Positions 3,359-39,210 of a DNA stretch of 64,000 nucleotides are shown piece by piece. The stretch comes from Schmidtea polychroa. Lineage: Eukaryota. Each line of letters begins with the position of its first letter. Positions within the stretch are counted from its first letter, which is position 1. Below the pieces are notes generated by a model that saw only the letters and a program-made list of their open reading frames with translations, did not search any database and was not told the DNA's origin. The translations under genes and the position numbers were made by a program. Where the stretch lies: contig CM097886.1 in assembly GCA_044892525.1 (NCBI GenBank), forward strand, positions 122,388,001 to 122,452,000, read 5' to 3'.

Positions 3359-3513
3359 AGCAAGAAGTATGGAAATATTTATTAATTAGTTTGGTTGTAA
3401 TTTTTTTCTAATTTTAGAGTTAGAATTTTATCGATTCTTGAATGTGAATGGATTTAGAGAGTTGTTAATGGTATCGATTTCGGTTTTGGTTTTCTTATGA
3501 TTTTTCGGATAAA

Positions 3514-18400: not shown

Positions 18401-19555
18401 TGCTTCGATCGTTTCCAGTATTTGTTCATTATTCCCGACCTTTAAAAGTTTGTGCAGCGGTGTATCTCCATAATGGTCTGTGATCGTAAATAATACAGGC
18501 CATTGACTTTTTACTACCCTGAGTAATGGGTGTGTTCTTTCTCGGTTTGCATAGTTTTCGATCATGGTTAGCAGACCTCCCAATATCTCAAAATCTAATC
18601 GGTCTTTTGCCCATCCGGGCATTTTAGCTTTCACTTCCTTTATGATTTTCTCGGCTTCTGATGGTCGTAACCCCAATCGGTTACCTGTTGGTTCGTTTAT
18701 CTGCTGTAACATATTTATTCTATATGTTTGTGATCTTGTTGTTAATGTTCGCCCTTCCGGCTGGCTGGTGGCTGTTTTCGGTATTGGCTTACATCGTGCC
18801 ACATTTACATATATTGGCCTCGTGAAGGGGTTGTTTACCAATCGTACTCTCACATTGGTTTCTCCGATGAATAGAATCTCATACGGACCTTTGCCGTTTC
18901 GTTGTAATTTTTTGGTGGTTCCTGGAATTAATTCCGGTGTTTCGATCATCACCCAATCACCGGTTTGAAATGTATGTTGTTTAACGTTTTTCTTTCTATC
19001 ATGCAGATCTTTGTAACTTTCCTGATAAAACTTTATATTTAATCCCGCAGTTTCCCAGATTTCTTGCATTCTTTCCTTGAACTTGGTTACATAATCGTCT
19101 ATTTCCATGTATTGTGATATTGGTGGCTGATATTCTAAATCCATTGGCATATTGCATTCTCTGCCGTACATCAACTTAAACGGACTCATCTTTGTGGACG
19201 CGTGAATCGACATTCTGTAAGCCATTAAACATAATTTTATATACTCGTCCCAGTCGCGTTGATGACGATCGACGTAATTTGATAACATTTGAATCAGTGT
19301 TCCATTGAATCTTTCTGTCATACCATTAGTTTGTGGATGGTACGGTGATGTTCTTAATTTTGCGATCTTGAAGTAGTTGGTGACTTCGCTCATTATTTCA
19401 CTCATGAAGTTTGTTCCTTGATCAGTTAATATCTGTTTTGGTGTTCCATATCGACAGCATATCTCCTCTACTAGTATTTTTGCGATTGTTCTTGCTTTCT
19501 GATCTGCCATAGCGAATGCTTCGGGGAATTTTGTCAAATAATCTGTGATTACCAA
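15470..19555 (-). CDS. Integrase catalytic core and GPY/F module fused to two ankyrin-repeat modules, a charged low-complexity region and a C-terminal membrane segment (1361 aa)
   Basis: TDQGTNF, YHPQTNGMTERFN, SPFKLMYGR, KGPYEI. Ankyrin motifs GDTPLH, GYTPLMIAA, KNALHHAI, RTPLQQAI, GETAMMYAA, GNSAMDWA. Hydrophobic MMIMILVLTMV and WISGIIITGAFLIITGG. Confidence 0.9.
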   Translation of the reverse strand: MVITDYLTKFPEAFAMADQKARTIAKILVEEICCRYGTPKQILTDQGTNFMSEIMSEVTNYFKIAKLRTSPYHPQTNGMTERFNGTLIQMLSNYVDRHQRDWDEYIKLCLMAYRMSIHASTKMSPFKLMYGRECNMPMDLEYQPPISQYMEIDDYVTKFKERMQEIWETAGLNIKFYQESYKDLHDRKKNVKQHTFQTGDWVMIETPELIPGTTKKLQRNGKGPYEILFIGETNVRVRLVNNPFTRPIYVNVARCKPIPKTATSQPEGRTLTTRSQTYRINMLQQINEPTGNRLGLRPSEAEKIIKEVKAKMPGWAKDRLDFEILGGLLTMIENYANRERTHPLLRVVKSQWPVLFTITDHYGDTPLHKLLKVGNNEQILETIEAFRDCNISTDQENNQGYTPLMIAANRDKAKDIIIALLETGSKITTQDHNQKNALHHAIEGKSTKAFIILVDLLSYEDNREIGNMYDGLLTAIKEKLITIAGLLIAWRNPIKNDYMVDINETFTKGENTLMREAMRGHHLFEIPNQLLQRGIKFSNHKDEQLIRKRITDFEKAISQFTDKVQVKFWETVSVLYMMENMNNIRETYLSIIQVLTAEERINSSNKKKIKIKKITVRKSEKRVDQIISDIATTSKPKIINSDQEIVIRKAKEVFFEEMQDLSDEAILAKITKTVHTYARDQTTNLDIGKIKAFIPLAFTLPTKDSRTPLQQAILAAKENRAITIIRILRDLGEESNAKNEQGETAMMYAAITKIHPKTLHILHQSGSRLDEISNEGNSAMDWATIQPNLEMIRFICKNATRTEVENICKNTSQFQWNTIRMSLEAMKLLLTWKIPQSNKYAININEFYENGVNAMVKNTLTKGGTPKIIMIVLNREDLKFTQNQNEQKRIGKHRRIQLRELVKEWNRKRHVATGRKEFEFEAKLARNRVLTAYRRLLNDINVEDDISNDSEGDKGDKDKDDKDDDNNEKGRNGNKEKEKSEENNQENNDASRKKEENNPRNRIKQEEKTNSGKQRVCLLFTNKEMETNMMIMILVLTMVEMITAQGGMRTIKEAKETENKDNKEEELKQEKKKQVQEQQWDLKEEWDLKERCILGRCMSRAYQRLVLKNEDAEPITEVGIQEAYQHRNGKKITKVKWKEVHLSKGGEIVITQLQPRKEHKVCISRLGPGENCLQYVTQQQPPKEYTVCILRNGPERECRRYPGKRGKKRKINDEKDEQGKRKKTGEKYQDNYVSEEEMEKIQKMAKEGMNEEIARIRGMIKGNGKDGNLKSTEAISTIMNKEKAEIISVKQMMWISGIIITGAFLIITGGTIKIIKDRRHRGELEMARIRNFQHHVKRPSNIKQEQWVEAWNAQRPPSSRI

Positions 19556-21956
19556 TATATATATATATATATATATTCCCTCTATCTGATTCTGGTAGTG
19601 GACCGACTACGTCCATTGATATCATAGTCATTGGTTCTGCTGGTACTGGCATTGGTTTTAATGGTGCCTTCCATTTTGTTCCCGTGTTTTTTCTGGTTGC
19701 GCAAGTTATGCAATTTTTCACCCATTCCGTTACATCCTCGGTCAATGTAGGCCAAAAATATTTTTGTTTCATTCGTGCCAACGTCTTTTTAGATGACATA
19801 TGTCCTCCGAGTCTTCCGTCATGGTATTGTGTTAGCAGATCTTTACGTCTATTCTCGGGAATGCACATCAGTCTTTTCTCGCCATCCATTATCAATAACC
19901 AATCTTTCTCTATTATATATCGATGTCGATGTTTATCCATATGCTCTTTCAATTTTTGATCTTTCTCATATACCTCTGCTTTTCCAGTTTTTACATATTC
20001 GATAATTTGTTTCAACTCGTCATCATCTTGCTGGTCTTTTCGTAGTTGGCAAAAATCTAAATCTTCCGCTACCATTAGACATATTCGTTGCATTTCGTGA
20101 TCTACTAAATCTGGAAAGATAAATCTGGACATACAATCCGCATTGGCATTCGCTCTTCCCGCTTTGAATTTTATGAACGGTGAATATTCTTGTAACTGCA
20201 TTGCCCATCGCATCAATCTACTTGAAGCTTCTTTGTGTTGGCCAAGCCATACTAGTGGTTGATGATCTGTTGTGATACATATTTCGTGTCCCCATAACAA
20301 ATATCGAAAATGTTTAATCGCTTGTATAATTGCTAACGCTTCTCTCTCGGTTACGGAATAGTTTTTCTCATGCTTTTTAAACGTTCTGCTGTAGTATCCA
20401 ATCACTCTTTCTTTTCCTTCTTCATCCAGTTGTCCTAATATTGCTCCGGCTGCATATCCACTTGCATCTGTTGCTAATAAGAACGGTTTCTTGAAATCAG
20501 GATGTACTAGTATTGGGGCTTCAATTAATTTATCTCGCAATGTCTCAAATGCTTTTTGTTGTTCTGCACCCCAAATAAATGAAATATCCTTTTTCACTAA
20601 TTCCTGTATTGGTTTCGCAATACCTGCATAGTTTTTGATGAATTTTCGATAATATCCGCATAATCCGAGAAATTCTTGAACTTGAGTGACAGTTTTTGGT
20701 GCTGGACATGTTTTTATTTTTTCTATGTTTCTTGGATCTGGTTCTTTGCCTTTTGCTGACACTATGTGTCCTAAGAACGTAACTTTTTCTTTTGCCCAGT
20801 CACATTTGGATGGTTTAAGTTTCAATTTCCATTGTCGTAATCGAACGAACACGTTTCTGATATCTTCCAAATGTTGTTCGAATGTTGCTGAATATATTAA
20901 TAAATCATCAATATATACCATGCACTGCTTGATCCCGTGCGTGACGAAATTCATACATCTCTGAAATGATGCTGGGGCATTGGTCAGTCCAAATGGCATT
21001 TTCCTGAATTGATACAGGTCTCGACCCAACGTGAAGGCCGTTTTCTCCTTGTCTTCCTCTTTAACTTTGATCTGCCAATATCCGCTTTTTAGATCTAAAG
21101 ACGTAAAATATGCGGCCCCTTGCAGCATAAGTAACATCTCATTGATGTCTGGTAACGGGTATGTGTCTCTTTTTGTTACGGCATTTAGTTTCCGATAATC
21201 GATACAGAATCTCTGGGTACCGTCTTTTTTCTTCACCATGACTACTGGAAATTGCCATGGCGAACAACTTGGTTCGATCACTTGTGCATCTAGCATTTTT
21301 TGTACTTCTGCTTCGGCTATCTCTTTTTGCTTCTCTGCTAGTTTGTATGGACGTAGTGCGATTGGAGTTTCGTCTATTAATGGTATTGCGTGTAATGTAA
21401 CATCGCATGCTCCCAAATCTAAGTCCGAAATAGCGAATATATCTTTATATTCTATCAATAATTGTTGAAGTCTTTCCTTTTCCTTTTCCGTTAGCAATGT
21501 GCTATCGATTGTCCATAATTCGTCAGCTTTCGTTGTTTCATTGGTGATTTTTGGTAATTCGATGTCTATCATGGGTGTCAATCTACCCAATCTTTCATTT
21601 TCATATATGATCTTCTCTTCTTCCTCGAAATTTGTGATGTTAATTGGTATTTCCCCTTCGTCATTAATTGTTATTATTTCTCTTGCTAATGGTAATTCTC
21701 GTCGTTTTTCGAATGATTTGCTTGGCTCAAAAATGGCTTCTCCTTCCATTCCTGCATCCACTTTTATTTGACATATCATCTGGGATTTTGCTGGTACAAT
21801 TATTTTCTCCGGACATCTGATTATTGCGTTCATTTTGCATATTCTACCCATTTTATCTTTTAGGCACATTGTTGTTAGATCTATTACTACTTCTTTGAAC
21901 AATTCCGGCATTAAATCCGTTCCGATTATACATGGTTCACTCAGTTTGGGTATCAC
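19422..21956 (-). CDS. pol: Pol: protease C-terminus, reverse transcriptase, RNase H, integrase N-terminus; goes out of frame at the (AT)11 tract near 19555-19576
   Basis: RFCIDYRKLN, LDLKSGYWQI, MPFGLTNAPASFQ, YIDD, TFLGH; RNase H ATDASG..GAIL.Q, EREALAI, TDHQPL; H..H...CITC; MDVVGPLP. Confidence 0.95.
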   Translation of the reverse strand: MIPKLSEPCIIGTDLMPELFKEVVIDLTTMCLKDKMGRICKMNAIIRCPEKIIVPAKSQMICQIKVDAGMEGEAIFEPSKSFEKRRELPLAREIITINDEGEIPINITNFEEEEKIIYENERLGRLTPMIDIELPKITNETTKADELWTIDSTLLTEKEKERLQQLLIEYKDIFAISDLDLGACDVTLHAIPLIDETPIALRPYKLAEKQKEIAEAEVQKMLDAQVIEPSCSPWQFPVVMVKKKDGTQRFCIDYRKLNAVTKRDTYPLPDINEMLLMLQGAAYFTSLDLKSGYWQIKVKEEDKEKTAFTLGRDLYQFRKMPFGLTNAPASFQRCMNFVTHGIKQCMVYIDDLLIYSATFEQHLEDIRNVFVRLRQWKLKLKPSKCDWAKEKVTFLGHIVSAKGKEPDPRNIEKIKTCPAPKTVTQVQEFLGLCGYYRKFIKNYAGIAKPIQELVKKDISFIWGAEQQKAFETLRDKLIEAPILVHPDFKKPFLLATDASGYAAGAILGQLDEEGKERVIGYYSRTFKKHEKNYSVTEREALAIIQAIKHFRYLLWGHEICITTDHQPLVWLGQHKEASSRLMRWAMQLQEYSPFIKFKAGRANANADCMSRFIFPDLVDHEMQRICLMVAEDLDFCQLRKDQQDDDELKQIIEYVKTGKAEVYEKDQKLKEHMDKHRHRYIIEKDWLLIMDGEKRLMCIPENRRKDLLTQYHDGRLGGHMSSKKTLARMKQKYFWPTLTEDVTEWVKNCITCATRKNTGTKWKAPLKPMPVPAEPMTMISMDVVGPLPESDRGNIYIYIYIGNHRLFDKIPRSIRYGRSESKNNRKNTSRGDMLSIWNTKTDIN

Positions 21957-22498: not shown

Positions 22499-25400
22499 TC
22501 AATTTCTAAATCTGTCTAAAAATTTTGGTTTGTTCTTTTTCAGTTGTGTCCTTGTTGCTTCATCATACATTGTTTTCCGAAATCGTCTACCGACTTCCTC
22601 GTCAGTCCCTTTTATTTTTGTCAGTATTTTTATTAATCGTTTTATTCTGTGTATATCTTTAGAATGACCGTGCAACACCATTGTTTTTGCCAAAAATGGT
22701 AGAAAACCTACTATCAACTTCCAATTTACTTTCTTTTCTTTCTTATAGATATCAAAACACGCTAACATTTGAGTCAATATTACTCTGACAATCTGAATAA
22801 TTAAGATGATTCCCAATATTCCTGCCATCATTTGACCGAACACTAGAAATCTTCCCCACATTGCTTTCATCATGTTTGACGTGGCTTGTTGAAAATGATC
22901 GGGTGACAATAATAGTTCGTAATTGGGACCTGATTGGAAATTCGTTCCCCCAGTTATGGTAACCATATTTGATAGAATGGATTCTCGCCTTGCTGGGAAT
23001 AGTACGTTTAGTCGTGCCGTTTCTAAATCCTCTGCTGAGTACATACCTGCTTTTGACACATCAATTGGTTTGAAATCTTGCTCCGTTGCGAGTTCTATTA
23101 ATCCAAACTTTTTAGGCTCTTGTACTTCGGTTTTTACCGGTAACATTATCCATTTCCCATCGGGTTTTTCATATAACGGTCCGTATGCATTTGAACAGTT
23201 GAAGGTGTTCGGATAAAATCCAATTGGGTTCATAATTCTAGTGACGGGTTGAACGAATCTGTTTTGCCCTTTGTAACTAATTTCCAACTCGTTTGCGCAT
23301 TTCCCTGGTGGTATTGTGGGTTTTCTTGGCAGTCGCGCAAACGTCTTGGTACATGCATATGTATACATTACCTCTCCCACCATTCTACCAAAATGTCCAT
23401 CCGGTAACGGGAGTGATGGCATTGTGTTATCTGGGTGTGTTATTGCGATGGCTAATTTTGTTTTTAGTATCTCTTTATTCAATGAACAGTCATTTTGTAT
23501 AAGATCGTAGTATACTTTTTGCATTGTCGTTTGTCCTCGATGAAATAAAAAGTCCATTTTGTTGTTGGCATAAAGGTACAACTTCACGTCCTCCGTTGAT
23601 ACTTTTCCTACTGCTCGGTCTATTACTTGCCTTGACATGTAGATACCTGCGTAGTTCGTCCGATATACTATGCTGTCACATTTGGTGGTCTCTTTTTCTC
23701 TGATGAATCTCATACCGATATCTGGATCATCTGTAATTAATGCCGTTGGTGTTTTTTGTGTTGTGAGTCTCTTTTCTTTGGGGGATGGTGGAACTGGTTT
23801 CCCATTTCGCATCCTTACGTTTCCATTCTCTTCATCGTCATCTTCGTTTTCGTAAATTTCTCCTTTTACTTCATTGAATAGAGCACTTTTTAACAATTGG
23901 AGTCGGCATTTTTGGGTGTTAGCTTCATATATTATAGTCGAAATTCCCGTTCTACACACGTTTTCCGTAGCTCTGCATGCTGGGTTGGTTTTCATTTGAT
24001 AGTTGTTTGCGTCGAATTGTGCTTCGTATTCCTTCAACTCCAATGTGTAGGACTCAATTACTACTACTCCCGAGATCACTTCTCCTCTGATCGTATATGT
24101 GCCTCCGTTACATGATCCATCAGTTGATTTTACTCGTCCGGCTACATAGATACTTTCCGTCTTGATCATTCCGCTTTGTCCGTGTATTGTTACTCCATCC
24201 CTGATTCTCATCGCTCCGGTTCTAAAAAGCTCTTTACAGTCTTCCCGTTGTATAGGTACTATTTCTTTATCTAATCCAGGTAATATGAGGGTTGAATATG
24301 AGTATTGTCCACAGTAGTATGCCAACACTTTCTTCGATACTACGCATTCTCTAGCTTGCGTCCTAATGAAATCTGATTCTTGGTATACGTGATAGGAGAC
24401 TTTCTTTTTTACTATATCTAATTTATTCGGAGATGCCTGTCTACATTCCTCTATATCTCTCAGGGAGTATCTTTCTCCTATTATTGAATTGTCACAGTCG
24501 TAAATTGTAAATCCAGCTGCTCCACTGGTGCAGAGCATCCATATCATCATGGTCATCATTAGTGAATTAATCGACGCTTTTCTGCTGGCTGGGTCTTTCA
24601 ATGGCAATTCCCATTCCAGTTCGTTTAGCAATTTCTTCAACCGAATTTGCATCGATCTCTCTTGCTCGTTTTTTCGTGGCGCTTGTATGAGTCTTTTCCA
24701 CCCACCGGCACGGATAATATGTGGTTCGATTGTATTTTCAATGATTGTAACGGTCATTTCTACATGATTTGCGAATTGTTTGTTAGGTATTTTCCTTGCT
24801 GCTAATCCCATCAAATTGTACATTAGATACGTTAATACTACTAAATGATGTTCGTCGTCGTTTGCGTTTAAAGTTAATTGTTCAATTACCCTTCTTGTCT
24901 CTTCCCAATCGGTTTTAGTGGTTTTTGTCTTCTCTTTGATTAATTTCGGAATTATTCCGGATATTGTGTTCCATAGCTGTCTGGCATCTACGCTTGCTAC
25001 TTTTCGTTGCCATAACCGTCTCAATTGCGGGTTTGTTATTATTAACATATCCTTTACTAGCTCTCGTATCCATTTTTCACCTCTCTCGATTGTTGGTTGA
25101 GCCTCTTTTAGATCCCATACTATTTTATCCAATTTCTCTAATCTGACTTGTCCTTGTTCCTGTTTCAACTGTTCTCTGGTTTTAAATTCTGGTTTTTCTC
25201 CTTGCTTCTTGGGTCTTCCTTTTGCCCGTTTCTCCATCATTGTTCCAGCTTCTCTTGTCGTTTCATAATTCGGGTTTCTCTCGTTATCTGTTCTTGGCAA
25301 TGAGCTATCGTTGTTTCTCAGCCACTCATTCCATTCGTCTATTATTTTGTCCGTTTGACCTTCTGGTGTTGGTTTCGTCGGTCCTTTTGGTCGTTGGAAT

Positions 25401-27397
25401 TGTTCGTCGGTTTCGGTTTCTGTTGTATTATCGATAATTTCCTCTATGTTCAGCTTATTTGGTTGTTGATAGCTAGTTGACGGTTGGCTTGTTGTCCATA
25501 TTTCGGCTCCTGTCGGCCATCTTACCAGAATTGGTGATCTTTCTCCAGCTCCTTCATCGCTGTCTTCTAATATGATTTCCTCGATTTCCTCGGTTTCATT
25601 CGATTTACTCGCCACTTTGTTAGGGCTTGGTGTACTCAAGCTACCTTTCGTAGTTTTGCTGGATTTGCTCTTCCTTTTAATCGGTTTTCCCAATGTTTCT
25701 GCCATTGTCAATACATTGATCTCCCCCAATCTCATGGGTGTTATTCCGACATCTGCATTATCATCTAACGATTTTCCGAATAGTTGTAGGTGAAATGGAG
25801 TTTCGTATGCTAACTTCTTTTTTAACTCTCTGATCTTTGTTGTTGGATGTACTTTTATATCCTCAATGCTTTTGTCGGGATACTTGACTCGGATACGATA
25901 CCTTTCCTGGGTATCTTGTGCCCATTCTTGGTTTCTCCATTTCCTAATAATTTGTTCTAGCTGTTCTGGGTACCATTCGTTATATTGTCGGTATTCCTCA
26001 ATCGCTTTCGCCATTTCTCTTAGATTGTGGATATTCTCTGATGTCTTTAGGATGATGTTAGCCAATGCTACTACTTGTCGTTTTTGATTTTTTGCTCCCG
26101 TTGCTAAGATATCACCTAATTGTTTATATCTTTCCTTCTCTTCTCGTTCTCGAGCTTCCATCGCTTCTTCGCTGTCCATATCGGCATATTCGCGTTCTTT
26201 CTTTCTCATCGCATGAATATGTCTGGTTTCCGTTTCACTTTCTGACGTAACATCCGTTTCGCTTTCGTCGTCCGATATCGATTCTATTTCGTCCTCTTCG
26301 TATTTTGGAGGTTCATCTTCCTCTTCCTCTGATTCACTTTCTGTCTCACCAATCTCTGTTTCTACGAAAATTCCTTTCCTGACTTCCCACTCTTTATTTT
26401 CCGCATTCCACATCCTTTCCCAGGGAGTTCGTCTGCAAGATCTAGTACTTAGTTTCTTTATTTTTCCTTGTAGTTCCTTTTCCTTTAACCACTGTTGATG
26501 AATTTCAATTATCTCTACTGATTTTTTGTATAGCGTTTTCATCCTGTCTCGTATTTCTTTCTGGTATGTTACATCTCTTGTTCGGAATTCGTCCATGGGC
26601 AATATTCTGATGATTTGATGATTATCCCACATTCCCATTTCACTTAACGAGGTATCGTCTTCGGCCCGTAATATTATTTTGTCGTACATCATGACTACGT
26701 CATCTATCATACCATCACTACTCTCGCTTCGTACCTTTTCCGTTATCTCTTGGTTTATCTTTGTTACTAAGTCATCCACCGTACTCTGATTACTCATCTT
26801 TATTCGTCGTTTCTCCTCGTTTGGTAACCATATGGTTATTTCTAACTTCTGCGGTTGCGTTTCTTTTAATCTTCCATATTTGTGGATCAAATTTATGGTT
26901 CTCCAATCGCTCATCCTGAGCAATTCTGTATCTCGTAATCGGCTCATTAGTTCATGCATATCTGGAGTTCGTCTTGCTATGAGTAAATCCCAGTTATCTT
27001 CGACTTGTTCTTGAATTTGTTTGATTAGTTTATCTAGATTCCGCCTTAAAGTGCATTGTTTTATTTGTTCCAATTTCAGCTTGATATTGAAATCGTATTC
27101 AGCCTTGGCGTCTTTAGCCCATTCATGAACATTAGTTGGTTGCTTCTCTTTATGCAACTTCAATATTTGAGTTTCTCCTGGCCAGATCAATGCATCTATT
27201 AGGTGCATGTCTGGCTTAATTTGTTCTCCTTGGTATTGATATAAATACTCTTTCTTTCTCGAGCTGCCCAAATGTTCTCTTATCCAATCGAAAAGATCGT
27301 CTGTAACTGTATTTTTTATCCATATTCTCTCGAGTCCTTTACTCGTTCCGATTTTTATTACGTAGCGTGTTGTCTCCGCTTGTTTCATTTTTTCCAT
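22499..27397 (-). CDS. env: 1632-aa ORF: N-terminal accessory region (3 ubiquitin-like domains, Bcl-2-like domain), then signal peptide and chuvirus-like envelope glycoprotein with C-terminal TM
   Basis: Hydrophobic leader ending ...SGAAG|FTIYDC (mature start 24511). Cys pattern YDC...YSL.D..EC, YYCG..S, C..L..TG, AG....DG.C.GG.Y, VVV..Y.L resembles chuviral G. TM WGRFLVFGQMMAGILGIILIIQIV. BH2-like IEPHIIRAGGWKRLI at aa 890-904. Confidence 0.82.
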   Translation of the reverse strand: MEKMKQAETTRYVIKIGTSKGLERIWIKNTVTDDLFDWIREHLGSSRKKEYLYQYQGEQIKPDMHLIDALIWPGETQILKLHKEKQPTNVHEWAKDAKAEYDFNIKLKLEQIKQCTLRRNLDKLIKQIQEQVEDNWDLLIARRTPDMHELMSRLRDTELLRMSDWRTINLIHKYGRLKETQPQKLEITIWLPNEEKRRIKMSNQSTVDDLVTKINQEITEKVRSESSDGMIDDVVMMYDKIILRAEDDTSLSEMGMWDNHQIIRILPMDEFRTRDVTYQKEIRDRMKTLYKKSVEIIEIHQQWLKEKELQGKIKKLSTRSCRRTPWERMWNAENKEWEVRKGIFVETEIGETESESEEEEDEPPKYEEDEIESISDDESETDVTSESETETRHIHAMRKKEREYADMDSEEAMEAREREEKERYKQLGDILATGAKNQKRQVVALANIILKTSENIHNLREMAKAIEEYRQYNEWYPEQLEQIIRKWRNQEWAQDTQERYRIRVKYPDKSIEDIKVHPTTKIRELKKKLAYETPFHLQLFGKSLDDNADVGITPMRLGEINVLTMAETLGKPIKRKSKSSKTTKGSLSTPSPNKVASKSNETEEIEEIILEDSDEGAGERSPILVRWPTGAEIWTTSQPSTSYQQPNKLNIEEIIDNTTETETDEQFQRPKGPTKPTPEGQTDKIIDEWNEWLRNNDSSLPRTDNERNPNYETTREAGTMMEKRAKGRPKKQGEKPEFKTREQLKQEQGQVRLEKLDKIVWDLKEAQPTIERGEKWIRELVKDMLIITNPQLRRLWQRKVASVDARQLWNTISGIIPKLIKEKTKTTKTDWEETRRVIEQLTLNANDDEHHLVVLTYLMYNLMGLAARKIPNKQFANHVEMTVTIIENTIEPHIIRAGGWKRLIQAPRKNEQERSMQIRLKKLLNELEWELPLKDPASRKASINSLMMTMMIWMLCTSGAAGFTIYDCDNSIIGERYSLRDIEECRQASPNKLDIVKKKVSYHVYQESDFIRTQARECVVSKKVLAYYCGQYSYSTLILPGLDKEIVPIQREDCKELFRTGAMRIRDGVTIHGQSGMIKTESIYVAGRVKSTDGSCNGGTYTIRGEVISGVVVIESYTLELKEYEAQFDANNYQMKTNPACRATENVCRTGISTIIYEANTQKCRLQLLKSALFNEVKGEIYENEDDDEENGNVRMRNGKPVPPSPKEKRLTTQKTPTALITDDPDIGMRFIREKETTKCDSIVYRTNYAGIYMSRQVIDRAVGKVSTEDVKLYLYANNKMDFLFHRGQTTMQKVYYDLIQNDCSLNKEILKTKLAIAITHPDNTMPSLPLPDGHFGRMVGEVMYTYACTKTFARLPRKPTIPPGKCANELEISYKGQNRFVQPVTRIMNPIGFYPNTFNCSNAYGPLYEKPDGKWIMLPVKTEVQEPKKFGLIELATEQDFKPIDVSKAGMYSAEDLETARLNVLFPARRESILSNMVTITGGTNFQSGPNYELLLSPDHFQQATSNMMKAMWGRFLVFGQMMAGILGIILIIQIVRVILTQMLACFDIYKKEKKVNWKLIVGFLPFLAKTMVLHGHSKDIHRIKRLIKILTKIKGTDEEVGRRFRKTMYDEATRTQLKKNKPKFLDRFRN

Positions 27398-27442: not shown

Positions 27443-29368
27443 TTAGTTTCTTTCCAGTTTCATTATCTTTTGTATGAAGCGTCTGTATGGTATGATGTCA
27501 ATGAAATCCTGGTTTCTTACCACCACTGGAAGTATTTCTTTTACTTGTTTTATCGCCTCTTCTTTTTCCTTTCTCAGTTTCATCTCGATATTCTCATCTT
27601 CACTTTCGCTTGCCACATCGCTTTCACTTTTCTCCTCATCTTCTCCGATCTTTTTCTTTAGTTGTTCGATATTTTCATTTAACTGTAATATTTCTCCACC
27701 AAGGCTACTCACATAATCCTCCTCGTCATCTGTTGACAATACCTTCTTTGTCGTCCTCATCATGTTAATTCGTAAGTTTCTCATTCTTGATACTTTCTTG
27801 AGCTTTTTATTCTCAAATATCGTTAATTCTTCCGATTCTAATTCTTGTACCATTTCATGGGTTAAATGACTAGTTTGTTTCTCGTTTCCGTCATTTATCG
27901 CTTCTGCTTCTGTTTTTGTTTTCTCATGTTCTCTTTCGATCTTATCTTTTATCTTTTTCCAAAATATTTTCTGGATTCTCTGATTTCCCTTTAGTGGTGT
28001 TGTTGGATTTTTCTTTTTATCTTCTGTAACCGTTTCTTTCGGCTTCTCTGGTTCGATCATAGGTACAACTCTTGGATTTTTACCATAATTGTAACAATAT
28101 TGCTCCTTTATCTCTTTTACCATTCTCATCATATTTATTCGTAATGGTTGTTCTTGTCGCTGCTGAATTCGCTCTCGTTTTATTCTCTCTTCCTCAGCTT
28201 GTAGTCTCTGCCATTCTTGTGCATGTTGTTGTACTTCATAATTGTTAAGATTTTCGGTGCTCCTCATCATGCGTATATTCTGAGTTTGTTGTGGTACTTG
28301 TTCTTGTCTCGGTCTCATCATTTGTTGCATCATCTGTTTCATTTGTGAAATTTCTTGCATCACGTTCATTTGCTTTCCTTCACTGGGGTTACTTTGTCGT
28401 TGCGGATTAGGTGCATAATTATTGTTTCGTTGTGGTGGTCGTTGTTGTTGGCCCCTTTCTCGGCAATCTCTTGAGATGTGACCCGGTTGACCACAGTTAA
28501 AACATCCTCTCAATTGACATATATTTTCCGTGTGTCCTCGTCGTCCACACCTATTGCAATTTGCGCTTCGGTAACAATCTCTATCCCAATGTCCTGGTTT
28601 ACCGCATGTTCGGCATTGTTTGTTATCGTTCGTATTTCGTCGATTATTAAAATTATTTCCATTGTTCGAGTTGTTGCGTTCACTGTTATTCCCGTTTGAT
28701 CGTCCTTGCGGTGGTTTGAAAATTTGATGCGCACCTGGTATAAACTGATTCATCTTCGGTTCATGATTGTTGTTATCTCCATTTTCTGTTTTCGCCGTAG
28801 CTGCTGCGATTCTTCCCTCCTCTTGCATGACATTCATTTGTGCCGGGAGGTGTTGATCGCATCTTGTGGCCCAATCTATGGCCTCTTCTAGTGTTTTACA
28901 CATCTGACATCCCACCGAGGCTCTTACCTCTTCCCGGCGTAGTCCTTCTATGAAATAACCAATTAAATTTTCCTCTGGCAGGTTTCCGTTCATGGCCTTC
29001 TTTGCCAATCTTCGCAATTCGCTTGCGTATAACGTTATTGATTCATTTGCTCTTTGTTTTCTACTCGCTAATTCTCCTAGGGCTTGATTTATTGGTTTGC
29101 TGGCCCCGAATGTTTTTCTCAAAAATGTTTTGATGTTTTCCCAATTGTCTAATTTCGTATTTCTTTCTTTTGCTTCTAGATACACTTCGAGTGCGCTATC
29201 GCACAAAAACAGAGGCATTCGTTTACTAATTGCTTCCGCTGTCCATCCGCACACATCGATATAGACTTCAAAATTTGTTATGAACGTTGCCAACTTGTTC
29301 GCATTCCCGTTAAACGGTTCGCCTCTAAATTTTTCTTTATACTCGTCGGTTTTTACCACATTCATCAT
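27443..29368 (-). CDS. gag: Gag: retrotransposon capsid domain, three CCHC zinc knuckles, long Q/K/E-rich extension (641 aa)
   Basis: Capsid-like FITNFE...WENIKTFLRKTF...Q..NESITLY..ELRRLA...FIEGL; knuckles CRTCGKPGHWDRDC, CNRCGRRGHTENIC, CFNCGQPGHISRDC. Confidence 0.92.
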   Translation of the reverse strand: MMNVVKTDEYKEKFRGEPFNGNANKLATFITNFEVYIDVCGWTAEAISKRMPLFLCDSALEVYLEAKERNTKLDNWENIKTFLRKTFGASKPINQALGELASRKQRANESITLYASELRRLAKKAMNGNLPEENLIGYFIEGLRREEVRASVGCQMCKTLEEAIDWATRCDQHLPAQMNVMQEEGRIAAATAKTENGDNNNHEPKMNQFIPGAHQIFKPPQGRSNGNNSERNNSNNGNNFNNRRNTNDNKQCRTCGKPGHWDRDCYRSANCNRCGRRGHTENICQLRGCFNCGQPGHISRDCRERGQQQRPPQRNNNYAPNPQRQSNPSEGKQMNVMQEISQMKQMMQQMMRPRQEQVPQQTQNIRMMRSTENLNNYEVQQHAQEWQRLQAEEERIKRERIQQRQEQPLRINMMRMVKEIKEQYCYNYGKNPRVVPMIEPEKPKETVTEDKKKNPTTPLKGNQRIQKIFWKKIKDKIEREHEKTKTEAEAINDGNEKQTSHLTHEMVQELESEELTIFENKKLKKVSRMRNLRINMMRTTKKVLSTDDEEDYVSSLGGEILQLNENIEQLKKKIGEDEEKSESDVASESEDENIEMKLRKEKEEAIKQVKEILPVVVRNQDFIDIIPYRRFIQKIMKLERN

Positions 29369-30640
29369 GACTGGTTCTTGTAACTCTATTGTTTCTTTTA
29401 AATTTTCCAGCGGTGTCGCTAAATTATGGACGGATAATTCTTCTGTTGACCCGGTTACGTTGTTTGTTATATCGGATAGGCTTTCTCTGCTTCTAGATCG
29501 ACTAGGGGTGTATCCGAGGTTTTCTTGGTCAAATGTTGGTACTTGATTTGTTCTTTTTGCTCCTTGTGATCTTCCTCTTTGCTGTTTTATGGATCGTCCT
29601 CTTCTGAGCTGTTCTAGTTCGTCTCCTGAAATTAATACGTCTCTTGACTTACTTGAGGATCTGAGATTTAGTTTCTCCGTGATTTCTTCTTACGCCTCCT
29701 TATCGTCTCTTATGGATTTCTCGGCAATTATCGGCTGCTGACTTGAGCGAATTCGGTTTTGTCGGTGTTCCGAGTCCTTGGCAATTGGTTGTTAGCGTTA
29801 TGAGACGTCTTCCGTTCTTGGAATCTTCGGGTTGTGTTACTCCTACTGAGCGGGTTCTGGATTGGTTATTTCTAGTTGGTCGTTAATTTCTTCGAATTCC
29901 TTTGTGCAAGTTCTGGATTGGCTTGATTGACTGGATTGGTTTGGTATCTAAAATGAAAAAATGATCTCGTGTTGCATCTGCTCACACGACTTCATCATTC
30001 TTTCTTCAACATTCAAACACAGACACCGTTTAGGGCCTCTGTTATACTTCCCCTTATTTCCCCATACAATTTCTCGTGGATTATAGTTACCCATCAACCC
30101 ATAGTTTTCGTCGATTTTAAATTATCTATTTAGGGTAGTAATAATTATCTATATGGTCGTATGAATCATCTATAATTATCATTTATAATATCGATAGGTC
30201 GTTGTCAGTTACTGCTTATCACCCCCCCATATTCTCTTAATCCTTTTACGCGATTCCGCTATTTTACTTAATCTTTCGTCTCTGTTCCCCTTTACTCGGT
30301 TCTACTCTGAACCAAAAAAAAATCGGATTCGTTTATCCGGTTTAAACCAAAATTCTGTAGACTTTTGTCTACTTACTTGGGATCCCCTTTAATTAATTAA
30401 TTACCTTCCTTTTTACTCGTCATTTATTCCCACTTATTCTCTACTTTTACTATCTCCTCAATTCATTTTCCTTTTCTGATTCTCCTTTTCTACTAAAAGG
30501 GTTTTACTTTCATCTTCTACGAGCTCGTTTAATCCTTTCTAAATTCGACTTCTCGTATCCCAATTCAATTCGTTTCTAGCTAGCTTAATATTCTATCTCA
30601 TTATCAACTTAAATATTATCCAATCATTTTCTAGGCCTTT

Positions 30641-31070
30641 ACGACTGGCTGGCACTTTTCAACAGCTCAATCTTCTTCCTTCTGACCGGTTGGACTATTC
30701 GACAACTCGATCTTACGACTGGCTGGCACTATTCAACAGCTCAATCTTCTTCCTTCTGACCGGTTGGACTATTCGACAACTCGATCTTACGACTGGCTGG
30801 CACTATTCAACAGCTCAATCTTCTTCCTTCTGACCGGTTGGACTATTCGACAACTCGATCTTACGACTGGCTGGCACTATTCAACAGCTCAATCTTCTTC
30901 CTCTCCAAACTGGCTGGACTTTTCACAGCTCAGTTTTTAATTTTTTTTCCTGACCGGCTGGACTTCTCGACAGCTCGGCCTTAATATCTCCCGACTGGCT
31001 GGACTTTTCACAGCTCAGTTTCAATTTCCCTGGCCGGCGGGACTATTCAACAGCTCAGCCTTAATATCTT
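30641..31070. repeat. Tandem array in the 5' leader: 3.5 copies of a 74-bp unit (a dimer of ~37-bp subunits) plus 4 degenerate subunits
   Basis: acgactggct starts at 30641, 30715, 30789 and 30863. The core GACYGGYTGG(C)ACTWTTC(R)ACARCTC occurs 11 times. Confidence 0.95.
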
Positions 31071-31642: not shown

Positions 31643-32122
31643 TTAACTGAAGTAAATCGTGTGCTTCTCCTTTATTGCACATACACATAAAGAACAATGC
31701 GTTAAACTGACGGCGCATTCGTCGCAATGGCTAAGGTGTCCACAAGGTAGCATTAGAATTCTGGCAGGTCGCGTCTTACAAATGTTACAAGTTCTCAAGG
31801 CCGCTGCTTTTTCTATTATCGAGGTTCGTATTCTCTGAGATAGAGTTTTTACTTGTTCGCGTATTCTCACATATTCGAGGTTCAGAGCGGGGTCGTCGAG
31901 TCGTTGCTGCATCCATTGGTAATGGACAGACAAGTCGGTGTCGGTATTTGTTGACCCCAATCTGTCGGTTAGAAAGTTTTGTTTGGATATCAGCGGTGCG
32001 TTGTGGCGTTGTTGCTCTAGGGTTTCTATTTGTTGCAGTTTTTCTCTTAACGTCTTTATGGAATCGTTTTCTATGTCGACGAACCGGCTTAGTCGTTGTA
32101 GATGTTTCCTAGCTTCTGACAT
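31643..32122 (-). CDS. LTR-encoded coiled-coil plus C-terminal IAP-type C3HC4 RING protein (no BIR domain)
   Basis: CNIC......ILMLPCGH..HCDEC...L..CSLC...I....IYFS* follows the IAP/zf-C3HC4_3 RING spacing and terminal aromatic tail. The acceptor-like ttttgtag lies 2 nt before the ATG. Confidence 0.85.
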   Translation of the reverse strand: MSEARKHLQRLSRFVDIENDSIKTLREKLQQIETLEQQRHNAPLISKQNFLTDRLGSTNTDTDLSVHYQWMQQRLDDPALNLEYVRIREQVKTLSQRIRTSIIEKAAALRTCNICKTRPARILMLPCGHLSHCDECAVSLTHCSLCVCAIKEKHTIYFS

Positions 32123-32708
32123 ATCTACAAAAGTATGTTGTCATTACTCGGTCTCACTTATAAAAATAAAAATAATATTATCGTGTTATAATCAATGTTC
32201 GTTTGGCTTTGTTCGCTATTGTTTCTAGTTTATGTATTTTATTCAATCTCTAATAATTCTTTTTTAATTTAATTCATTTAAAATTAAACAAAATTAGTCA
32301 ATTCCCATTTTCTCTTCTCTTCATATTCAATCACATTCATTCAAACTTATTTAGGTTCGTTTTTGTTCATAGCATGTTCTATTTTACGCAAAGACAGTTC
32401 GCATCATCATCTTAATACACTATAATATCAATTCATTTCAGTCCCGATTCCCTTTTTTTATTATAATTAATTAAATTGTTAGTCTAACACATCGTAATAC
32501 AGTAATAGGCAATCAAACAATTCGAAATCACAATCCCGGCTGAGCCCCCAAAAATCATGTTGGCGTATGTGGGGAAAGAGAAAATATGCCCACCTGATCA
32601 TCATACATCCCAAGTACTCTCTTCCGCTCCGATACTTCCCATACATACTCCAAAATGATCAAATACATATTCCCACGTATGAGCCCGTGGGGGTGTTCCA
32701 CGTTGGTG

Positions 32709-32810
32709 CTGCTCACACGGGTTGGAAAAGGTTAGCAGGTGAGCCCCTGCCTTAGGACTACTCCTAACCCTTTCTCGGTTCGGGTTCCATGGTGCCATAG
32801 AAGGTCTTAC
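32709..32810 (-). ncRNA. Conserved ~102-nt structured, intron-like element (GTAAG...CTCAC/CTAAC...CAG) in the LTR
   Basis: Homologues at 9731-9832, 44883-44984, 49984-50086, 56811-56915, 57193-57301 and 62429-62531. The hairpin around the GCTCAC loop shows compensatory changes. Confidence 0.5.
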
Positions 32811-33100
32811 CCGTTTCTTCGCTCCTAATTCAGTCCAACCCTGGTCCAAAGGGACGACATTTGCGCTCGTACTATGTCTCCAAGAGCACCTTTTACTCAA
32901 ATCAACCACAGCAAATCACACATACCATGAAAAAAAAAATCAAAGACTTCAAACAGTTGTATTAAATCGAAACATAAAAATACATTCACCATTAATTAAA
33001 TAAGAACAAAACATCAAAGGTCATGTACAGGATAACGTCAACTTCTCCGAGTTCCTTCATACCGCACAAAGATTGAGACAAATGAGAAAAAAGGAATTCA

Positions 33101-33865
33101 TTACGAAAACACTTCTCCTTCTGCGATCATTTCGTCAATGTCGACGGGCAACCGGCGATCTTCGAGGAATTTGATGCCGTCGGCCGGAACTAACCGAAAT
33201 ACTTCTTTCGTAGGGATAGAATGGGTGATTGTAATTTCCTTGATCGTCGATTTGGCTGCAGATAACGATGCCTCGAGCGCGGCCATGGCGTTTCTGCGCT
33301 TCTGATTTTTCTCTGAGCGCGTCGGTCTCTTACGCTTTCGAGGTGGAAGAGTGGCTCCTGCTGGAGGCCGGGTGAGTGGCGACGCGAGGACTGGAGCCAA
33401 GATAGGGTCCGATGGACCGCCAGCCATAGGCCGATAGCCAGAAAGAACTGGGGCGGGAATTGGTGGCAATTGTAGGCCGTGCCCCTTGCAACTGATGGTT
33501 GATGAGGTTTCAGTGGATTGATGGTGTTCCGGGAACACGTTAGTCCCATCTTGTATTGGGTATTCGCGAACTCGCTTCGCTATCTCGGATTCCGAATATA
33601 CTTTGTGCAGTGCCTCTGATTGGGCTTTTATGGTTAGCCTCTGGCATCTGCTCTCCTCGAGGAGACTGTCACGGCAGTGCTCCAAACGTAGAATTTTTCT
33701 CTTCTCTTCCTTCATTTGTGGCGGGGAGAACCACGTGCCTTCGTAAAGGTCGATTCTTTTCTTTAAAGCCCCGATGTATAGATGAAGCTGCGCGATATCT
33801 GCGTTTTTATCTGCGCAGGAGAAACATGGGCGAAGAGTTTTCTCAGCAGTTGTTGGAGTAGTCAT
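33101..33865 (-). CDS. LTR-encoded hypothetical protein (254 aa; CxxC, coiled coil, Pro-rich linker, basic NLS-like motif)
   Basis: Intact ORF homologous to 8672-9433. Nine of the 22 codons of LHLYIGALKKRIDLYEGTWFSP differ synonymously between copies, with no amino-acid change. Confidence 0.85.
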   Translation of the reverse strand: MTTPTTAEKTLRPCFSCADKNADIAQLHLYIGALKKRIDLYEGTWFSPPQMKEEKRKILRLEHCRDSLLEESRCQRLTIKAQSEALHKVYSESEIAKRVREYPIQDGTNVFPEHHQSTETSSTISCKGHGLQLPPIPAPVLSGYRPMAGGPSDPILAPVLASPLTRPPAGATLPPRKRKRPTRSEKNQKRRNAMAALEASLSAAKSTIKEITITHSIPTKEVFRLVPADGIKFLEDRRLPVDIDEMIAEGEVFS

Positions 33866-36284
33866 CTAAAGAATGAGAAGCCCTTTATTTACATCATTAA
33901 AATCCTTTCTACTATTTGTTTTCTTTTTATCGTGAGCTTTATCCTGCCACATGTGCATACAATCAGGATTGTCCCCCACATCCATACCTTTGACCTCACT
34001 TAACTCATCCAAACCGTAAACCTTCAAATCAACTCATCATATCGTTCGTAAGGAAGAAAAAAATGAGAACCATCACACGTTATTTCTCTACCCATATTGA
34101 TATTGTACCTAGGTTCCTGGGTCGACAGTTATCATCTAATCGCAATCAGTTACTCCTTACCACTAATATATTTTTCCACTTTTATTTATTATGACCCATT
34201 GAAAGTGTGTCTACTCCCTTGCTATTATGGCTTATTGAGTTATGCCTGCTTTAATTTAAAAGAAGTAGTTCCATGCTGTTGATGCATTTTTGCGCTGTGT
34301 TAGGTTAAAACGAATGTGTTAAAAATTATTGTAAGTATTAATTTCCCCCATAAATTATAATTTAATTATTTAAATTTTCGCATTTTATGTTGTCATAACG
34401 ACGCATATTAGTATGTAGTTGTGTACTGGTTTCAGACTCTACCTGATGTGCGCTAATGTGTATTATTTAGTTTTACTCAATTATCGCTGTCCTCTCTTAG
34501 CAAATTCTAGACATTGTGTCGGTTAGTGTACTTGATCTCGTCGCTTATTTATGCATGCCTACGGACACATGCTACTATGACGCAATGATGACGTCGACTC
34601 ACTCACGTCCCATGTATTAGTGGATTTATCTGTGTGTGGGTTTGGGTCTGCTTATCTCAGTTATAACATTATTAGCAGATGGGCTAGACGAACGGAAGAT
34701 AAGGAGTCAGACTTATAGAAATAACGATGGTTATGATTTCAAGATGGCCTAAATCTGTTATCGGGTAGCAAATGGATTTAATTTCTATCTCTCTCGTGAA
34801 TGTTGACTATTCTCAAAAACCTAATCGTTTCATCGACTTGGCGCAAATCGTTCCACAATCGAACCGCTGGAATATTTTATCTACGCTACTTGCCTCTCTG
34901 CAATAGTCGTTTCTCGATCAGATGGAAAATTTATTGATAATTTGTTCGGAATGGTCGATGAAAATTTCCTTTAGGACTGTAGTAAGTGCTTATGATTAAT
35001 TAGAACTTTGCTGTTTACTTTCCTGTCAGGACGAATCCTTATCGATGACAGTAGCTAATCGAAGGTTGATAACTAAGTCTCCTACTCGTCAAATAACATA
35101 TCACCGCGATGGGTTGAATCGCTAACGTTCTCTTAATTTATCAATTCTTGGAAATATAGAATGCTCCAGATTTTTATCATTCATCAAGAAAACGAAAATG
35201 GACGTTAGAATTATCAGTGAGGTTCGAGAATTTCATTACCCTCAAGGATAGTCGGTGTTCATATTCTGACGAAAAGAAGTCACCTAGCTCTAAATTGAAT
35301 ATGGCCGAACTCAAACTCGGATTAAATATCGAAAAATGTCGTCAATCTCCTAGAATTTTCAGTCAGCACGTTGTCGGCATCGAAACAGTATCGCTCAGAA
35401 GTTTCCTCAATCGAAAGTTTGCGACGGCTAATTCTACAGATAGCACTCGATGAAAGGATCATTGACTCGATTCGTTTTCTCTCACAGGGTTTCCTCACCC
35501 CTCACAACCCACCCAAGGACAGTACGCATTTCTGCCCACTGCCCTTGGACCGTCGTGAAGGACAACTCGACCCGACTTATCTCAAATCCTCCTCCAATAA
35601 ATGTGCAATTAATAAATTCATATATGATCAAACAAATATGGGAATAATGAAATTAAAAGAAAAATCAAATAAATAAATGTTTACCTGGCGGCCACGCCAG
35701 CCGGATTCCGGGTATGATGACTCTTGCTAACGTAGGTTTTTACATTCATTTAGCAATCATTGTAATACTAATATCCATGTAGATACTTGGCTGGTTCGGT
35801 CAGTGCAATTTCTGAGTATTCATATTCATAAGCTCTCTCTGAAAATGCATACGTAATTTAGCCGCATCATACCCGAGCTCCAGAGGACGTCGTCGCCAGC
35901 ATCATAGAGAGAAAGCAACATCTTTTGGTTTTAAATATAAATTTTATTGAAACATAAAACGTCTTTTGATATTAAATTCATAATAAACATTAAAAATATC
36001 ATACTAAAATTCAAAACATAATTTACCAAAATTCTCCGAAGGTGTTAGGATTGAAATCAAAGTCTTGTAAATTTTTCCTTAGTTAGCCTGGTTCTTCTCA
36101 ACTGGATTCGATCTCGACTATTATCTGCCTCTAAGTAATATCTGTTATGTCCAAGTATGAATATTGTTCGTAAGTCTGTGCTCGTGAGTGGTTCCTAGCT
36201 TAGTCCTGTAGAGTTTCGGGTTAGAATGATAATTTTAAATAAATTTTACCTGTAGAGTTTCGGGTTAGAATGATACTCTACAGA

Positions 36285-36330
36285 GTTTTGTTGCTCTTTA
36301 TATATATTTTTCCGTCCAATCAGGACACAC
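36285..36330 (-). promoter_or_regulatory. Putative LTR promoter (ATTGG/CCAAT box, then TATA), ~480 bp inside the 5' end of LTR A
   Basis: gtgtcctgattggacgg...tatatataaagag. The same layout occurs in copy B (6310-6340), C (54661-54696), D (58315-58352) and E (59264-59288). Confidence 0.6.
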
Positions 36331-38664
36331 CTTGCTTGTAATTTTGTTATTTATTATTATTTTATGTTTTTTCTTATCGTAGTATATTATATTTTAATGA
36401 CCCTACCTATTTCTATTATTGTTTTATTTATTTTCCTATTTTTTATTATTTTTCTCCTATTTTTCTGTGGTTTTATTGCTATTTTATTGTAACTTCATTT
36501 TTTGTTTTAATTAACCTTATGGATGATTTTATTTTTATTTTGTTTTCCTTTAGTTTTCGTTTGTTTTTCTTAAATTTTGTGCCATTTTATTTCTCTTTTA
36601 CTGTTGTGCTCATTGGGTGCCTTCCCTTTTGTCTTATTTCCCCTTTACAGGTTTTGTTATTTTATTTAGTTATTCTTGTTTCTTTATGGATGTTTAATTT
36701 GTTTCTTCCTATGTTTCTCGTAATTTTTATATGTTTTTATTTTATTTACTCTATCTCTTCCTGGGTTCGTTTTTCCAACACCTTCAGAGCTTGGCCCAAC
36801 AAAAAGTAGTTTGTAGGTGTAGTCTTTTGGGTGTTAAAATTACCAGAATTTGTAACAAAAATACTAAAAGCAGACAAACAAAGGTAAATTAAATAAGAAA
36901 CATTAGAAAAATGAGTACAGAAAGGAGAAAACAATTGTGCGGTAGCGAGGGAAATGCGAATAGTGAAAATGCTGACCGGAAGACTGTAAAAGTAAAAGAT
37001 TTTACCCACACGTAACCATCAGTAAATAACAAAATAAAGACTCTGTCAATTTGAAATTATTATATGTGTAGTCCTTTAGTCATATTGCTGGGTTAAAAAC
37101 CAAGGACAGTTTTATATCCTGTAACCTTTCTTGTTCCCACCGAAAGGCCACTAAGATGACCACACAACATGGAAAAAGCAATAAGAACCAATCGGAACCA
37201 ATTTTTCTACCCCTAGATTTTTATTTCTATTAGATCTACCATAATTTAGTGTAAGCACATCGGAAATTTTATGTTAGAAGATGAGTGAACATTAAAAATC
37301 TTAAGGCTAAAATGCTACATGATAGTGAAAGAAAAATATAGGGTAAACATACAAATACAGAACAGGAGTGATTCGAGAACTTGAAGATGATTTCAGAACA
37401 GTTTTTAACCTATTAACAATTTGATGTGATCCATTAACTTATTTATTTGTGATACAAGATTGTAATTATATTTATTTATTGGTTCTTGGTGATATTATAA
37501 TAAAGTAAACCCTCACACGCAAAAATGGAAAAATATCTGGATATATGTCAGAGATAAGGCTGACATAGAGAAAAGGAAAATGGAAAACTGAATCTGTCGC
37601 CAGTGCCGCAAATGAAACAGACTATATAAAACAGAACAGTTGACCGAGAAATCAGAACAAAAAGTAAAACAAAAACAGAACGAAATCAGAGACGAAAAGA
37701 GTAAAAAAGGAGACACAAAAACAGAGTGAAACGAGAAGTGACGAGAATAGTTTGTAAAATTGAACATAAAGTGGAAGTGGAGAAAATAAATTGTGTGGTC
37801 AAAGCAAATAGAACAATCGATCAACGTATCCTGTAATTAAATAGTTGATGGATAGTGATTATTGTTGTGATTACAGAAAGGGCTATTCTTCACGTAGTGT
37901 CGAAATAAGCTCTATGTGATAAATTGGTTTATAATTAATTGGTTGTAATTGAAATTTGTACAATCCCGTGTGGATATTAATAAAGCCTATCGTGTTCGAG
38001 AGTGTTGAATTGTGAATTAATAAACACGCTTTGGAGTCAAATATTATCACCAACCCAATAACCCAACAGTATTATTTATTTGTTATTATTATATTTTATT
38101 AATTTTAAGACAGATTGGAGTGCATGTTATTATTTTTAGACATATTTGTTCAAACAGGTTAGCAATAAGTGCATTTATTGGAAGATTGTTTATTTTATTT
38201 TTTTGAAAATTTTAATTGAACCATTAAAAATTTAATTTTGATTTTTACAATAATTTTCATGTTGATATTGAAGATTGTAAAATGTATTTATATAAACTAT
38301 TCATATTTATAGTATTTATATTTAATCATTTGAATGTTGTTGGTGAATTATGAACTCAATGCGCGTCTGTGTGCGCGTTGTATTGTGTGATGGGTTTGTG
38401 TGCGCACACAGACGCGAGCAATGTCATTTTTTGGGTTGGGTTGTTGGTGTGTCGCGTCTGTGTGCGCTTTTCTTTTCTTTGTTTTAGGCTGTGTGCGCAC
38501 ACAGACGCGAGCAAGAAGTATGGAAATATTTATTAATTAGTTTGGTTGTAATTTTTTTCTAATTTTAGAGTTAGAATTTTATCGATTCTTGAATGTGAAT
38601 GGATTTAGAGAGTTGTTAATGGTATCGATTTCGGTTTTGGTTTTCTTATGATTTTTCGGATAAA

Positions 38665-39210
38665 ATGGAAGAAATGGAAATGGGAAATACTACCAACGAA
38701 ACTGATGGTTCCTTTTTTATGACCTCAAGAGATCCTGATAATGTTAATGGTGTGTTTGGCCAAGTAATATTAAATTTATTTGGTGGATTGATTTCCGTTG
38801 GTATTCGATGCAATAAATGTGATGTAGTAGTTACACAAAGGAAGGTTCCAGATAAAATGATTGAGAAGAGTTCAGCTACAAGATTGTTTAATATTACTGA
38901 AAGTACTGGAGGTGTTATGACTGGTATGATCCCTGATTATCGATCTCAAGTATGTCGTGCACAAATGGAAGCAGCTCGATTTAGATATAAACATGGATAT
39001 GAAATGCTTTGTGACATAATATGTCGTTCTATTGCGGATATTAAGCAGCTTTCTACCCAATCAACTGAGATGCGACCATTAGGTTGTTCAATGATGGCAT
39101 TATCTTATGGTATTGACATGGACAAATTGTTATTATTCAAAAATAAAATTATTATTCGTGATCTTGAATTTAAACATGAACAGTTGTGGTATGTTGAAAT
39201 TAAAGGTTGA
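38665..39210 (+). pseudogene. PSMA6: Duplicate proteasome alpha-6 fragment
   Basis: Same as 3514-4059 apart from one L/V change. Confidence 0.88.

Follow-up and report, generated by a model that had tools for sequence, protein, structure and literature searches.

A BIR-less IAP-type RING gene between the primer-binding site and gag of Burro-like Gypsy elements in Schmidtea polychroa

A gene for a 159-aa protein that ends in an IAP-type RING occupies the leader of a giant Gypsy-like LTR element in Schmidtea polychroa and is almost certainly an internal accessory gene, located between the primer-binding site (PBS) and gag and outside the LTR. We studied this gene (leader RING) in a 64,000-nucleotide stretch of contig CM097886.1 (assembly GCA_044892525.1, positions 122,388,001 to 122,452,000; hereafter the window) and across the S. 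polychroa genome, where Burro-like Gypsy elements have long carried it as an accessory gene under purifying selection. As judged from its residues, its RING has a conserved fold and dimer tail but a non-conserved activating surface.

Results

Carrier element and its surroundings

The carrier is a Burro-like giant Gypsy-like LTR element on the minus strand. It comprises gag, an env-like gene between gag and pol, pol, ankyrin repeats, a TRAF/MATH gene and multi-kb LTRs (Table 1); the Bcl-2 match in the polyprotein piece is weak (E = 0.02, below the cut-off). The 254-aa ORF inside the LTR is truly LTR-encoded, as it occurs in every LTR seen and is retained in solo LTRs. It has a basic motif, and relatives of it lie at 8672-9433, 43824-44585 and 61442-62140.

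Table 1 Features of the element and its leader in the window
Feature	Position	Strand	Remarks
5' LTR, 4244 bp	32558..36801	-	TGTTGG...CCAACA; RING ORF outside
LTR-internal ORF, 254 aa	33101..33865	-	No Pfam family; in 5', 3' and solo LTRs
PBS	32533..32550	-	7 nt past LTR end
Acceptor-like T-rich tract and AG (putative)	32125..32134	-	AG at 32126-32125, 2 nt before ATG
Leader RING ORF	31643..32122	-	159 aa; predicted helical N-terminal region (~residues 1-109), RING, tail
C3HC4 RING, C112-C146	31685..31789	-	8/8 zinc ligands; Ser after seventh ligand; linchpin Val
C-terminal tail, 13 residues	31646..31684	-	Y157 aligns with cIAP1 F616
Tandem repeats, 74-80 bp	30639..31069		Between RING ORF and gag
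gag	27443..29368	-	Retrotrans_gag, zinc knuckles (Pfam)
Polyprotein piece	22499..27397	-	Weak Bcl-2 match; Monjiviricetes-type fusion glycoprotein
pol (RT, RNase H, integrase) and ankyrin repeats	15470..21911	-	pol in two frames in window copy
TRAF-like accessory ORF	13464..14852	-	RING, zinc fingers, MATH
Solo LTR of same subfamily, right part	1..1650 (window-equivalent -2594..1650)	-	AAAA on both sides

The window also contains a 15-kb duplication of 99.9% identity (1-12445 and 35152-47597, reaching window-equivalent -2594), with the order solo LTR, 10.8-kb segment X, 3'-truncated element, 5' LTR and second X copy. The truncated element breaks at ~12446, inside a coiled-coil ORF, and the duplication could stem from a recent rearrangement or from an artefact of the assembly. 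Gypsy fragments inside the duplicated segment adjoin a 181-aa ORF (3514-4059 and 38665-39210, plus strand) that Pfam matches to a proteasome subunit (E = 5.5e-22).

Position of the gene relative to the LTR

The limits of the LTR are fixed by a second copy upstream, by 4-bp target-site duplications and by the PBS, which we take to resemble a tRNA-Pro PBS. The 10 kb upstream of the window match window 32557-35151 at 99.8% and no further, and the duplications read AAAA at the solo LTR at window-equivalent -2594..1650 and ATAA, TATC and TAAA at three other loci. From this LTR end the PBS follows, and the ATG of the leader RING lies 435 bases into the internal region, upstream of gag. The original prediction had placed the ORF within the LTR and had expected any solo LTR of the subfamily to retain it; neither statement holds. 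No PBS and no RING follow the LTR end of the 99.8%-identical solo LTR. When we surveyed the 30 best genome loci for the last 303 bases of the window LTR, 26 stopped at CCAACA with unrelated flanks and no RING, and the other four ran into the PBS and then the RING. From the window alone the boundary could be misjudged, because the second LTR copy leaves the window before reaching its 3' end, but LTRs of the same subfamily terminate at CCAACA without the RING, and a gene inside the LTR that solo LTRs keep can practically be dismissed. The survey of LTR subfamilies proposed with the prediction thus went against it, and spread of the gene by solo LTRs does not hold.

The prediction was right that the other LTRs in the window lack the ORF: the leader RING is the sole RING-ORF match in the window, and solo LTRs lack it because the gene is not LTR-borne. 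In all six further loci with two or three LTRs, as at the window locus, each internal region contains one RING, after the upstream LTR only, so that the gene is not duplicated at both ends of full-length elements. RING pairs spaced 26.4 kb apart, which could be mistaken for 5' and 3' LTR copies, are instead head-to-tail tandem elements sharing an LTR. Such tandems, with units 99.99% identical, lie at G000:C2:107320001-107390000 and C1:72630001-72700000.

Among loci selected through the RING, the PBS was found upstream of the ORF in 59/60, at a distance of 424-512 bases in 29/30 close copies and of 685-786 bases in 30/30 copies of a sister family. A RING followed every PBS site in a larger sample (89/89), a count that is biased because most of these loci were retrieved through the RING. 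For an unbiased count, we took the first 30 of 571 exact LTR-end/PBS junctions, chosen without regard to the RING: a full-length, stop-free RING ORF lay downstream in 14 and upstream in none. The other 16 share no sequence with the window LTR or leader and belong to other families. Despite the identical junction, their leaders are unrelated and mostly non-coding, and these elements are possibly non-autonomous families that use the same priming site. A secondary insertion with its own target-site duplication, also considered, is ruled out by the same post-PBS position in copies ranging from 100% to 26% identity.

Copies, constraint and module exchange

At least 150 genome matches to the leader RING were scored (44-100% identity), 131/150 of them without an in-frame stop. 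The sister family encodes a leader RING of 160 aa, 26% identical to the window copy and ~700 bases past its PBS, and all 150 copies scored were free of in-frame stops. Of 13 pairs with the window copy, 7 were unsaturated and gave a whole-ORF dN/dS of 0.07-0.18, and by the same measure the N-terminal region is constrained as strongly as the RING. Full-length relatives are otherwise scarce. A single-sequence search recognized no homolog among 70 candidates; a profile search gave 21 matches with only two full-length relatives, and the only full-length matches outside the S. polychroa genome were two 160-aa records of the sister-family type.

The sister family additionally encodes, in many copies, a 393-aa BIR-RING ORF after the TRAF gene, near the 3' end; its RING tail has 16 residues and is longer than the cIAP/XIAP tail. 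The leader RING and the BIR-RING protein are separate genes: they co-occur in one element and align over the RING alone, and in a 62-column RING tree the BIR-RING protein falls outside a group (95/98) that unites the 17 leader RINGs. This tree of 32 RING rows leaves 17/28 branches open and has long branches, and it does not place the origin of the leader RING. A candidate host IAP with a single-exon-like IAP-type RING, Pro and Arg intact, lies at G000:C2:155085116-155085265 and groups with the BIR-RING protein with modest support (91/97).

The LTR, the leader and the gag-pol core recombine with one another like interchangeable modules. One element is 97% identical to the window in gag and 98% in RT, with only 44% in the RING and 37% in the LTR ORF, and other elements have a RING that is 99% identical and an LTR ORF that is 73% identical. 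Near-identical gag-pol cores bear LTR ORFs and RING ORFs that are 35-46% identical, for example at G000:C2:122290001-122320000.

Domain architecture and predicted fold

The ORF is intact from ATG to TAA, and its product ends in IYFS. A Pfam search, the HMM check suggested with the original prediction, matched residues 110-151 to zf-C3HC4_3 (PF13920; E = 1.7e-8, 34.6 bits, curated cut-off 27). The ligand spacing is that of IAP RINGs, and the top 10 PDB sequence matches are the RINGs of cIAP1, cIAP2, XIAP and BIRC7 (E 1.2e-8 to 1.5e-6), followed by CGRRF1 (E = 3e-3).

An AlphaFold2 model, built on 14 aligned natural copies, reached a mean pLDDT of 68.9, with residues 41-61 below 50. Five helices precede the RING in the model, and its best fold matches are the RINGs of cIAP2, XIAP, cIAP1 and IDOL (rmsd 1.6-1.9 Å over ~60 columns). 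The predicted helices, together with heptad-like periodicity in the N-terminus, make an N-terminal coiled coil plausible. Of the predicted architecture of a coiled coil and a terminal RING in an intact ORF, the intact ORF and the C-terminal RING are therefore confirmed, and the coiled coil stays at the level of a plausible model feature.

A BIR occurs in 34/36 longer homologs, most of which align at the RING end alone. The BIRC (IAP) family is defined by at least one BIR, and Pfam finds none in the leader RING ORF. A search that detected its positive control likewise found no BIR in any of eight stretches with the window family, the window among them (0/8). The description of a BIR-less IAP-type RING is therefore well founded.

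Residues of the RING surface

In cIAP1, according to the accessible text of PMC6349121, the E2 is touched by V573 and M575, and donor ubiquitin by H588, I604, C605 and R606, the linchpin. From the tail of the partner protomer, R614 and F616 act in trans, and the mutants F616H and R606A are defective. At the positions of V573, M575, H588 and P603 the window protein has I114, K116, H129 and S144, and at those of I604, R606, R614 and F616 it has L145, V147, T155 and Y157. The expected aromatic tail residue is thus present as Tyr at the F616 position, and the window subfamily retains Ile at the main E2-contact position (V573). Judged by sequence, the window copy departs from the pattern of a canonical active RING E3, with its hydrophobic E2-contact residues, loop-2 Pro and basic linchpin: Ile is kept, and Lys, Ser and Val occupy the other three positions.

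We scored these positions at 70 loci (30 close, 10 divergent and 30 of the sister family), which are close relatives and not independent events. Tyr occupies the F616 position in all 70, and the tail has 13 residues in 65 and 14 in 5. None has Pro after the seventh ligand or Arg at the linchpin; Lys is found there in 5/70, and Asp in 30/30 sister-family copies. The BIR-RING protein of the same genome has both Pro and Arg in 25/25 parsed loci (5/30 loci were unparsed). Of the outside RINGs (177, parsed from 137/149 hits), Pro is present in 117 and Arg/Lys in 126; the two occur together in 86, and 20 lack both.

Other samplings recovered leader copies with a basic linchpin. Ten copies found by a cIAP query have Arg (9/10) or Pro and Lys (1/10), all with Ala at the V573 position. 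In 13 parsed copies selected by the PBS, the tail Tyr is invariant (13/13), with Lys at the linchpin in 6/13 and Ala at the V573 position in 6/13. None of the leader copies examined combines Ile or Val at the V573 position with both Pro and Arg/Lys.

A conserved fold and tail combined with a non-conserved activating surface suggest that the leader RING has low ligase activity. The RING had originally been called an E3. The zinc ligands and the tail Tyr agree with that label, but the positions that activate E2 and ubiquitin differ from those of active IAP RINGs and make it doubtful. In the available text of PMC12326332, only Arg, Lys and Met exceeded minimal activity among the linchpin variants assayed in RNF38, and XIAP is active with a Tyr linchpin and no Arg, so that the identity of the linchpin alone does not decide activity.

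A putative splice acceptor before the ORF

In nearly all copies shown, an AG lies 0-2 nt before the ATG of the leader RING, usually after a T-rich tract. Equivalent AGs are found 0-6 nt before the LTR ORF, the TRAF ORF, the coiled-coil ORF and the BIR-RING ORF, and none before gag or pol. From this pattern, we infer that the leader RING is probably translated from a spliced subgenomic RNA with a non-coding leader. An in-frame upstream coding exon with a BIR is unlikely, given that the family is BIR-less and that the AG-to-ATG offset is 2 nt in the window family and 0 in the sister family.

Discussion

How the leader RING may act

MDMX, itself a ligase of low activity, lends MDM2 a trans-acting tail but has a poor E2 site. 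We tentatively favor, at somewhat less than even confidence, a comparable role for the leader RING as a BIR-less IAP-type dimer partner of an active IAP ligase with little activity of its own. Its mRNA would be a spliced subgenomic RNA made via the AG just before the ATG, and the protein would dimerize as IAP RINGs do, tail to RING. Paired with a host IAP, or with the BIR-RING protein that the sister family encodes, it would contribute its tail in trans and a poor E2 site. Such pairing could damp the self-ubiquitination of the IAP and keep the element-expressing cell alive, although the direction of the effect, toward survival or toward death, is a guess. As the window family has no BIR protein in any of the eight stretches searched, only the host or a different family could supply the partner. 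RING heterodimerization of cIAP1 with cIAP2 has been proposed (available text of PMC3172091).

Against the partner model stand the 20/177 outside RINGs that likewise lack Pro and Arg/Lys, the activity of XIAP without an Arg linchpin, the Ile that the window subfamily retains at the main E2-contact position, and the leader subfamilies that keep a basic linchpin. The model also does not account for the N-terminal 110 residues. An extended form of it appears rather unlikely: Burro elements would divide the work between two IAP-derived RING genes, an armed BIR-RING ligase confined to one family and a disarmed leader RING, older and present more widely, that serves IAP ligases as an MDMX-like partner or decoy. 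If true, this would amount to a transposon-encoded pseudo-ligase that tunes host cell-death control.

About as unlikely is a self-sufficient, homodimeric E3 of low activity whose helical N-terminus picks a host substrate such as a silencing or cell-death factor, much as BIR-less RING proteins do in large DNA viruses. The purifying selection on the N-terminus would fit this proposal, as would the intact zinc ligands, tail Tyr and Ile at the V573 position in the window subfamily, the functional Tyr linchpin of XIAP (available text of PMC12326332) and the small RING proteins of iridovirus, pithovirus and baculovirus among the top viral fold matches. However, the M575, P603, R606 and R614 positions have all changed together in the window subfamily, the sister-family linchpin is Asp, and wherever a subfamily has a basic linchpin, its V573 position is Ala or Ser.

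It is improbable that the RING is purely a zinc-stabilized dimerization module and that the helical protein serves the element cycle, in RNA handling or particle assembly, with no role in ubiquitin transfer. E2-facing positions do differ among subfamilies while the fold is retained, and the gene, placed in the leader, recombines en bloc with LTR and leader. Yet the tail Tyr is invariant, its cIAP1 equivalent touches donor ubiquitin (accessible text of PMC6349121), and 16/30 elements that share the PBS junction, all from other families, manage without a RING.

Less probable still is the partnership, originally proposed, with the TRAF protein of the element after the example of cIAP and TRAF2. 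Both genes are present in the window family and the BIR-carrying family, and the N-terminal helices could conceivably pack on the TRAF coiled coil. The analogy fails, however, because the cIAP1-TRAF2 contact runs through BIR1 (available text of PMC3172091), and the leader RING has no BIR. Moreover, the RING swaps freely against the TRAF-bearing core (RING 44% where gag is 97% and RT 98%), unlike what is expected of a tight pair. A complex prediction with a trimer of TRAF residues 228-456, run without alignments and with the partner fold uncertain, scored 0.00, a value that weighs on neither side of the binding question.

Returning to the favored partner model, what the sequence of the leader RING suggests is a regulatory rather than a catalytic role. 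The gene is common to a BIR-carrying and a BIR-less family and is intact in hundreds of copies. If the model is true, studies of how Burro acts on cell death overlook one component, and IAP signaling may be influenced by BIR-less families as well.

Comparison with known systems

With the RINGs of cIAP1, cIAP2, XIAP and BIRC7 (PDB 6HPR, 3EB5, 4IC2 and 4AUQ), the leader RING shares the ligand spacing, the preceding helix and the 13-residue tail with an aromatic residue third from the end. Unlike these proteins, it has no BIR, UBA or CARD, has Lys, Ser, Val and Thr at the M575, P603, R606 and R614 positions, and bears a predicted 110-residue helical N-terminus. The likeness to MDMX in MDM2-MDMX is a proposed principle, by which the tail is kept and the RING's own E2 site would be weak; the trans-acting tail of this heterodimer is mentioned in the accessible text of PMC6349121. 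Homology to MDMX exists at the level of the RING class only (MDM2 matches at E ≥ 0.26).

Planarian Burro/GYPSM1 elements are giant Gypsy-like LTR retroelements with BIR, MATH, BCL2, ankyrin and AIR1 'RING Zn-finger' motifs (available text of PMC6431247). The window family resembles them in gag, the Bcl-2-like region, pol, ankyrin repeats, MATH/TRAF, long LTRs and accessory ORFs, and in the env-like fusion protein between gag and pol. It differs from their description in that text by the absence of a BIR and by the BIR-less RING ORF between PBS and gag. Our literature searches, outside whose scope were the Dev Cell 2026 Burro1 paper and the 2018 genome paper, returned no account of the leader RING ORF.

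The closest precedent is B-IAP of Burro1 (Dev Cell 2026), described in the available text of PMC13465017 as an anti-apoptotic cargo with RING and BIR, through which Burro1 is reported to protect planarian stem cells. The leader RING is likewise an IAP-type RING carried by a Burro element, but it lacks the BIR that B-IAP combines with its RING. The counterpart of B-IAP is likely the 393-aa BIR-RING ORF of the sister family, in which Pro and Arg are intact. IAP cargo in Burro1 is already published; with the leader RING, a further and separate gene of the IAP-type RING class is added.
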